Assembly (NCBI GenBank): GCA_016840095.1
Contig: JAEOSZ010000131.1
Coordinates: 1 to 50,463 of the forward strand
Reading direction: 5' to 3'
From: Candidatus Heimdallarchaeota archaeon
Lineage (GTDB): Archaea > Asgardarchaeota > Heimdallarchaeia > Heimdallarchaeales > Heimdallarchaeaceae
Length of the DNA stretch: 50,463 nucleotides
Shown here: positions 26,010 through 27,122 of the stretch, in pieces
Position numbering within the stretch: the stretch's first letter is position 1
Layout of the letters: every line of letters begins with the position of its first letter
Notes under the pieces: generated by a model
Told to the model about the DNA's origin: nothing
Database searches by the model: none
The model's input: the letters and a program-made list of their open reading frames with translations, nothing else
Position numbers and translations under genes: made by a program

Positions 26010-27122
26010 TTATCCCACAACTCTGTCTAAATCATTATAGTCATTGACTGTATCAACAGCTATCATAAGAAAAGATGCAGCTGCTACGATAAATTTAGCT
26101 ACAGTAATAGCTCCATCAGTAGCTACGTCTGCGGCAAGTTCTAAACATAGTGCAAACAGTGCCATAAATAATGCTATACCAACTATTGCTTTTTCCCAAG
26201 CAGCTGCTGCATTGAAACATGCATGTAGAATCTCTAGTGAATCAACAAACCAACCGAAGATATCAATAATAGCTGAGTCAAATTCACTCCAACCATTAGC
26301 AAAGTAAACTAACGCCATCAATACTCCTAGGAAAGGTTGTGCAACAAGCTGTAAAGCCATTGTTTGAACAAACGGTAAGTTTGAAGGAATATACAAATCA
26401 ACAGCAGTCAATAAAACTAATAATATTAGTGATCCAAGATGATAACTTAATTCTGCCCAACTTAAACGATAAATTGCATAATCTAATAATGGGTCAGTTG
26501 TGCTTGATCCTCCTCCACCTCCAGCTCCTGGATCTAAAAGAATAACTAGAGGTTCAAGCACAGAATCACCATTTCTTATTTTAGATATTCTAGACGTTAT
26601 TTGTGGCATTATTGCTGAATTTTGTGTAAGTACATAAGAAATTACAAGACTACCAAAGATAGCATCTATTTCACCTTCAAAAGTTAATACTTGTTCAGAA
26701 TCTAGATCAGTTTGCTTTATTAATTCATTTGAGTAGCATGAAAGTACAATATCTTTGTTCAAAGTTCCTTTAACAGGATCTTCTAGTGTGTTCCATTGGG
26801 CAATCTCACCATCAATTAGTACTCCTTGTTTATCACCATGAGAAACCCATATTGATACACCAAGGAATCGCCAATATTTCAGGTTGTATTCAGCTGAATC
26901 AAAATCCACAACTACAGCATTTGGAATATTTTGTTTCAGAGTACTTATTGCTTCTAGAACAGATGGAGAATCATCTAATTTGACAATCATCTGATTTGGA
27001 ATGGGTGAAGTTAAAGCTTGTACAAAAGGCATACTTGAAGCCAAAAAAATTAAACAAGCTAAGCCTAAAACAGATTTAAATTTCTTCTTAGAAATTATAT
27101 TTGATTTTATGTTGTTTTTCAT
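26010..27122 (-). CDS. Secreted protein: signal peptide + caspase/CHAT-like (clan CD) peptidase domain + DPG-Gly linker + hydrophobic C-terminal domain
   Basis: Signal ending VQA; SIWVSHG (His codon 26838-40) and IVLSCYS (Cys codon 26736-38); LDPGAGGGGG; about 4 hydrophobic helices. Start probably ATG 27122 after GGTGA. Confidence 0.6.
   Translation of the reverse strand: MKNNIKSNIISKKKFKSVLGLACLIFLASSMPFVQALTSPIPNQMIVKLDDSPSVLEAISTLKQNIPNAVVVDFDSAEYNLKYWRFLGVSIWVSHGDKQGVLIDGEIAQWNTLEDPVKGTLNKDIVLSCYSNELIKQTDLDSEQVLTFEGEIDAIFGSLVISYVLTQNSAIMPQITSRISKIRNGDSVLEPLVILLDPGAGGGGGSSTTDPLLDYAIYRLSWAELSYHLGSLILLVLLTAVDLYIPSNLPFVQTMALQLVAQPFLGVLMALVYFANGWSEFDSAIIDIFGWFVDSLEILHACFNAAAAWEKAIVGIALFMALFALCLELAADVATDGAITVAKFIVAAASFLMIAVDTVNDYNDLDRVVG

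Follow-up and report, generated by a model that had tools for sequence, protein, structure and literature searches.

A putative clan CD autoprotease fused to exchangeable hydrophobic tails in Asgard archaea, and a Heimdallarchaeia clade without an adjacent membrane partner gene

Polymorphic toxin systems include caspase-like releasing peptidases placed upstream of the toxin tips, and those exported via Sec have been called rare in archaea (Zhang et al., 2012, PMC3482391). In the layout of clan CD peptidases, two consecutive strands of the core carry the His and the Cys at their C-terminal ends (PMC4357240), and within this clan family C80 is described as Leu-specific and as cutting itself in cis. 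Among archaeocins, the halocin C8 precursor ProC8 is exported by Tat; it contains the immunity protein HalI as its N-terminal part, and the mature peptide has 76 aa (10.64898/2026.07.27.741052). Here we describe P0003, a gene in a window of 50,463 nucleotides (the whole stretch of DNA that was analyzed) from a Candidatus Heimdallarchaeota genome, together with its family; the features are collected in Table 1. Our literature search found no description of the P0003 family, which Makarova et al. (2019, mBio) may however mention among the polymorphic toxins of archaea, and a search on the loss of a partner in the clade discussed below returned nothing.

P0003 is read on the minus strand from an ATG at 27122 to a stop codon at 26010-26012. 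A longer start at GTG 27134 (MVKKMK) was rejected as a Shine-Dalgarno artefact, because this GTG belongs to the ribosome-binding site. The 17-mer around the start is common to P0003 and the divergently oriented neighboring gene, and these are its only 2 occurrences in the whole genome. Judged by eye, the N-terminus has a basic n-region, a hydrophobic core and a signal end at ..VQA-L (residues 36/37), which bears out the Sec-type signal proposed in the initial annotation; on inspection, P0003 and its homologs have such signal-like N-termini, the export signal of polymorphic toxin systems. The DPG-polyGly linker and the hydrophobic, acidic-ended tail that the same annotation had read are also present, the tail being 158 aa long, and so is its alpha/beta domain, at a size corrected from ~130 aa to ~156 aa. 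Its expectation that the protein would be annotated as hypothetical was correct: homologs carry only hypothetical names, the closest being hypothetical proteins from Ca. Heimdallarchaeota, with one remoter homolog from Ca. Thorarchaeota. P0003 is more than a chance ORF, since it has 155 representative homologs at E<=1e-3, dN lies well below dS in both halves of the gene when the DNA of close relatives is compared, and contig pieces matching exactly inside P0003 occur in marine-sediment runs, one of which is possibly the source sample. The sequencing runs containing the stretch are marine sediment metagenomes; none of those listed is an RNA run.

Table 1. Coordinates of P0003, its putative functional elements and its surroundings, numbered from the first letter of the window.
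Feature	Position	Strand	Basis or remark
Whole gene P0003: signal peptide, caspase-fold head, Gly linker and hydrophobic tail, 370 aa	26010..27122	-	ORF reading
Shine-Dalgarno GAGGTGGTGA of P0003; 5 nt to ATG	27128..27137	-	GGTGA element
Putative Sec-type signal peptide, residues 1-36	27015..27122	-	Read from sequence
Putative minimal clan CD (caspase/CHAT/CPD-like) peptidase domain, residues 37-192	26547..27014	-	Fold and conservation
His95, putative catalytic residue, 135/137	26838..26840	-	Alignment of heads
Cys129, putative nucleophile, 137/137; at first breakpoint of relatives (~128-131)	26736..26738	-	
Asp153 in conserved I/V-D-A motif, 128/137; start of some truncated cassettes in relatives	26664..26666	-	
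Leu192, conserved last head residue, 124/136; candidate P1 for self-cleavage	26547..26549	-	
Linker, residues 193-212, optional in family; second crossover site (206-208) in close relatives	26487..26546	-	
DPG-polyGly run, residues 197-205, within linker	26508-26534	-	
Hydrophobic tail of helices (residues 213-370), without match to a known fold or family	26013..26486	-	
Helical hairpin, residues 293-332; equivalent to partner-contacting part of modelled G014 pair	26127..26246	-	
Terminator-like hairpin and T-run at stop codon	26001..26018	-	1 found vs 0.7 by chance, weak alone
Left copy of 15-nt direct repeat flanking insertion; AT-rich, suggestive only	25965..25979	+	
Right copy of 15-nt direct repeat, 14/15 identical	28757..28771	+	
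Divergent gene inserted together with P0003; secreted protein, carboxypeptidase-regulatory-like domain(s)	27541..28710	+	

In the structural model of the head (pLDDT 95), His95 follows strand 90-93 and Cys129 follows strand 124-127; the two strands are consecutive in the core, and His-Gly is followed by a hairpin. The succession of strand-HG, hairpin, helix and strand-C in the initial annotation agrees with this model, in which His95-Gly96 ends one strand and Cys129 ends the next; its 34 aa between His and Cys is right as an offset, with 33 residues actually lying between the two. Gly100, Ser131, Asp153 and Leu192 are each more than 90% conserved in the 137 aligned heads. The annotation had also proposed a caspase/CHAT fold, and Foldseek on the model recovered clan CD with CHAT first: all 4 matches at E<=1e-3 were the SAVED-CHAT protease 8tl0 (E 2.7e-4), and caspase-7, MARTX CPD and legumain came next. 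8tl0 was likewise first in VIA (Z 9.3, rmsd 4.3, 143 aligned) and the sole match at Z>=8 among 48,161 chains; DJ-1, PurE and flavodoxin-like folds reached Z 7-8, leaving CHAT a modest margin of ~1.4 Z over generic flavodoxin-like folds. An atlas search placed CHAT, C14 and C13 clusters among the rows at TM about 0.6, and atlas feature searches returned only unnamed clusters. At the level of sequence, only 2 PDB entries were found at E<=10 against the head, both of them MARTX CPDs (E 0.7), and no member passes the curated cut-off of the named clan CD profiles (CHAT PF12770, C14, C13, C25, C80), the best score being that of Peptidase_C25 at E 0.007 in 3/137 members. P0003 has no Pfam or NCBIfam family match, and searches with Pfam, NCBIfam and PADLOC gave no significant match for head, tail or partner. 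Because fold, motif position and conservation agree, the modelled head is very probably a clan CD (caspase-haemoglobinase fold) domain and a putative peptidase. Elsewhere in the focal genome, the region G000:C43:9465-10244 gives a weak match to the head profile (E 0.0016) without the His/Cys motifs; its sequence recalls a motif of the NAD synthetase type, and the match probably arose by chance.

The closest structural relatives, the CHAT proteases (PF12770; SAVED-CHAT 8tl0, VIA Z 9.3-9.4), share with the head the order strand-His-Gly, strand-Cys, then a conserved Asp and helices. However, identity is 10-12%, none of the 137 members has a Pfam CHAT match, and the P0003 head is much smaller, exported and without a sensor domain. 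The C80 CPDs (MARTX, TcdA-TcdB; 3gcd, 3eeb, 8yjc) resemble the head in their clan CD His/Cys layout and through the weak sequence match and the fold match given above, and their Leu-specific autoprocessing in cis would suit the conserved Leu192. In contrast to P0003, where this Leu is C-terminal to the domain, the Leu cleaved in C80 lies N-terminal to it; the CPD further needs InsP6 and a beta-flap, in whose place the P0003 head has helices, and the head itself is acidic (pI 4.4) at about 156 aa.

Conservation at the end of the head points to the junction as the candidate site of self-cleavage. Leu192 is kept in 91% of homologs and no conservation is seen downstream of it. In the model, residues 187-196 have a pLDDT of 91, and residues 191 and 193 take part in beta-bridges; over residues 197-200, at the DPG, the pLDDT drops to 47. 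Cleavage at D-P-G, as suggested in the initial annotation, was rejected: within 40 residues of the head, DPG occurs in 20/129 homologs and any GGG in 39/129, and many homologs have no linker, the head running directly into the first tail helix. A cut in cis after Leu192 seems to us reasonably likely. The LDPG-polyGly motif lies 4 residues past Leu192 and also 4 residues past the probable signal cleavage site of the divergent neighbor, and this equal spacing in the two sequences would fit, without proving, a cut at Leu192. The Gly run itself looks like a DNA crossover site, because the breakpoints at 206-208 that are found in close relatives fall there.

Clan CD also includes ligases and transpeptidases, such as legumain/butelase and GPI transamidase, and legumain (Z 7.8) and the OaAEP1 ligase (Z 7.1) are among the VIA fold matches of the head. 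One could accordingly imagine that an amine takes over the acyl group from an acyl-enzyme formed at the junction, so that part of P0003 is cyclised or becomes attached, and the conserved residues near both ends of the tail would suit such a reaction. We regard it as very improbable, since the acyl group stays with the head when the chain is cut after Leu192, and this step can therefore not cyclise the tail; moreover, the terminal DxxDxDxxVG motif is found in only 28/122 full-length members and accessory maturation genes were not found.

The tail consists to 59% of A/L/V/I/F/M and ends in an acidic motif plus VG, and residues 193-370 contain 4 K/R vs 18 D/E. It was modelled as a bundle of ~6 helices (pLDDT 74, pTM 0.48), for which fold searches returned nothing beyond the generic helical-bundle level, and no toxin domain was detected by Pfam, NCBIfam, PADLOC or fold search in the tail of any member tested. 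The tail family has conserved Glu and Asp motifs. Because three tail segments are hydrophobic enough for stopping Sec transfer, the tail may stay in the membrane of the producer. A signal peptide followed by at least three helices able to span a membrane would also be expected of a membrane-anchored surface protease, the tail being an inert or sorting anchor and the head cutting external substrates or being shed; a focal copy that is monocistronic and has no partner, and the presence of the head on large surface proteins, agree with this as well. We nevertheless consider it distinctly unlikely. The tail is acidic and has fewer basic residues than one expects of a stable multi-pass protein, an inert anchor would need neither tail exchange nor Glu/Asp motifs nor matching downstream genes, and the invariant-like Leu at the end of the head hints at a built-in substrate.

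Exchange of the tails was assessed in two ways. The heads form 1 cluster and the tails 33-54 clusters, counts that are biased because homologs were mostly retrieved via the head. The DNA of close relatives (G025, L122, L123) provides an unbiased test. Between G025 and L123, dS is 0.28 in the head vs 1.12 in the tail, and between G025 and L122 the relation is reversed, with 0.62 in the head vs 0.26 in the tail. Identity among the nearest relatives is 91-100% up to ~residue 130, 68-85% to ~190 and mostly 40-70% past that. Breakpoints from informative sites were placed at ~128-131, in the motif of the putative catalytic Cys, and at 206-208, in the Gly run (P<=1e-26, 0/200 permutations); these tests concern the relatives, and the focal gene, at a dS of about 1 from them, is too divergent for its own breakpoints to be mapped. 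A conserved peptidase half joined to a variable half after the DPG had been named in the initial annotation as something to look for, and both the cluster counts and the jumps of dS at the junction are in line with it. The family has in this respect the constant N-terminal part and the recombined C-terminal tips of polymorphic toxins.

Members of the family are spread in a patchy, multi-copy manner, the head being present in 49/83 genomes at the level of the class, with as many as 16 matches, and in 120/400 at that of the phylum (Asgard archaea, ~30%). At 25/38 loci a co-directional gene with at least 2 TM segments lies within 300 bp downstream, compared with a background of 12% of genes in the focal genome, a comparison that overstates significance because the loci are related. 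One family of such partners, of about 280 aa and 5-6 helices, follows tails of the P0003 type; it has no Pfam match and no recognisable signalling domain, and its genes also stand alone in other genomes. Partner-family membrane genes without an adjacent effector were seen at L093-L095, L098-L101 and L104, the last being a close relative of the G014 partner placed after an unrelated secreted protein. Genome G045 has full genes plus N-truncated cassettes whose starts lie close to the Cys or the Asp motif, and the membrane gene that comes after differs from cassette to cassette. At its loci L031 and L032 (G045:C4:888000-918000) and L033, one full gene is accompanied by several N-truncated cassettes with their own small membrane genes. 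Stand-alone C-terminal cassettes thus occur in relatives, at these three loci, and none was found in the focal genome. Family copies with in-frame stops or frameshifts occur at L002 (G008), L042, L043 and L047, and three of these adjoin partner genes.

The tail and partner of G014, the nearest partnered relative, were modelled as a complex with a score of 0.84 (best control 0.00), a mark that is reached by 58/80 solved complexes and 2/110 mismatched pairs. Runs of this pair agree in at least 86% of contacts, with a partner pLDDT of at least 56, and the contact is a helical hairpin matching focal residues 293-332. The model supports binding of the G014 partner to its own tail and says nothing direct about the focal copy. 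Covariation was no stronger for the tail with the partner (rho 0.54) than for the head with the partner (0.51).

A partner that binds the tail could also be a reader of it. The head would then release or expose a variable membrane ligand recognized by the cognate partner, as a self/non-self tag, a pheromone or a means of adhesion, and partner-free lineages would show an unread tag or a decoy. The modelled G014 complex, tails without a toxin-domain match, partner genes that stand alone and a whole clade tolerating partner loss with frames intact and dN<dS are consistent with such recognition or signalling. However, the partner has no recognisable signalling domain, truncated arrays with their own TM genes and broken copies beside intact partners form the pattern of toxin and immunity genes, and the distribution is patchy and multi-copy, and on balance we find this role unlikely, although it is the strongest rival to an effector.

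The same His/Cys head is found on exported TSP3-repeat proteins of 700-2000 aa (900-2000 aa at L124:1506-6845, L125:1735-6477, L126:2747-8944, L127, L129, L131), one of which bears a lipase-like hydrolase domain; as a class, these are uncharacterised Asgard surface proteins. Because the head also leads such proteins, self-processing need not mean toxicity, and on their account the head is a general module in these archaea, with a putative function in processing.

At the focal locus no partner gene lies nearby, and the immunity gene of polymorphic toxin systems is likewise absent there. The profile of the partner family has no match in G000 (the focal genome), G008, G015 or G025, genomes that are 85-89% complete. 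Genes of these four genomes form a clade (support 100/98) that is sister to the partnered G014 (99/96, midpoint root), and the other lineages around it are partnered. Since the clade is nested among partnered lineages, it is simpler to suppose that the partner was lost. None of the six clade lineages with readable context (the focal one and five others) has an adjacent partner; a further two contigs end too early to show the context. The swaps of tails seen with G025, L122 and L123 took place within this partner-free clade, with dN<dS in both halves. The G008 copy has a stop codon in the tail. Halocin C8 and other archaeocins resemble P0003 in being exported archaeal precursors with a cleaved C-terminal part acting on the envelope, as it may for P0003; Pfam and NCBIfam gave no match to a Halocin C8 domain or a HalI profile in P0003. 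A kin-directed archaeocin is a weaker reading at the focal locus, because there is no immunity-like partner gene.

The surroundings of P0003 also differ from those of its relatives. P0003 is monocistronic, and the 83 bp to the next, unrelated condensation-like gene leave no room for a partner gene. Most clade members adjoin an M20 peptidase or a thioredoxin reductase gene, and the focal copy lies elsewhere. The slot from the condensation-like gene to a GNAT gene (25927-28816) contains two secreted-protein genes in the focal genome, whereas G009, G015 and G025 have a different gene there and G023 and G031 none; by sequence comparison, P0003 and the divergent secreted gene are a two-gene insertion. 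A repeat match comparable to the one flanking it was found in 17/1500 random intergenic pairs (about 1%). No empty-site joint of the insertion was seen in four DNA runs, whose contigs are short and shallow. The divergent gene has LDPG-polyGly right after its signal peptide, within a 36-nt stretch that is 78% identical to P0003. Only weak, partial homologs of this gene were found, in 8/82 related genomes, and as none has LDPG-polyGly, the motif may come from recombination with the P0003 family.

Three further candidates around P0003 were rejected. The divergent neighbor has no homology to the head. A functional link to the downstream condensation-like gene was discarded, its adjacency not being conserved; this condensation/alcohol-acetyltransferase-like gene (24604-25926, minus strand) has a paralog on contig C11 and is present in 27/31 genomes of the taxonomic family. 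A 165-aa TM gene at 29714-30211 was dismissed as a partner, lying outside the insertion and matching no partner; its homologs adjoin the GNAT gene in other genomes.

Taken against the caspase-released polymorphic toxins (PMC3482391), the P0003 family has an export signal, a caspase-like domain upstream of a variable C-terminal tip, recombined tips, orphan cassettes and, the last two in relatives, a downstream cognate gene. In contrast to those systems it is archaeal (Asgard), its proteins have 330-400 aa without stalk or repeats, its tips form hydrophobic bundles of no assigned class, one of the crossovers falls within the peptidase, and the focal copy has no immunity-like gene. We do not file P0003 among the caspase-released polymorphic toxins, because the focal locus has no immunity gene and the tail matches no toxin domain.

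The reading of P0003 that we favor, at about even odds, is a self-processing, polymorphic membrane effector. As such an effector it would be exported via Sec as a pro-protein of an Asgard polymorphic effector family, and the clan CD head would cut the chain in cis after export, most likely after Leu192. The cut would free a 19-kDa acidic helical tail with an antagonistic action in or on a membrane, which it would probably disrupt. For most relatives, the downstream multi-pass membrane protein may bind the tail hairpin, as modelled for one relative, and confer immunity, and tails would swap at the motif of the catalytic Cys and at the Gly run, as seen in relatives. A partner-free tail could be harmless to its producer and aimed at more distant cells, could be countered by a protein from a different family encoded elsewhere in the genome, or could be inactive until outside the cell.

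Asgard archaea are the closest prokaryotic relatives of eukaryotes, and antagonism and self-recognition among them are barely described. No model in Pfam, NCBIfam or PADLOC covers the P0003 family, yet the family is present in nearly a third of the Asgard genomes searched. Its combination of a caspase-fold protease and a membrane module in one exported chain recalls, by analogy only, the caspase-gasdermin systems, and with its 156 aa the head, as a clan CD protease, would be unusually small. What is new is a partner-free clade that is still swapping tails; the general layout is analogous to that of bacterial toxin cassettes, and cutting and killing are putative. It is tentatively possible, at a little short of even, that Asgard archaea possess a polymorphic membrane-effector system of their own, based on a mini exported caspase-fold autoprotease with a cut after a C-terminal Leu, and that a Heimdallarchaeia clade has shed the partner and keeps swapping tails. 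If so, the gene of the partner-free clade would be a weapon against distant cells without self-immunity, or a variable self/non-self surface tag. The clade would offer a natural experiment that sets a kin toxin needing immunity against a recognition tag or a weapon aimed at distant cells.
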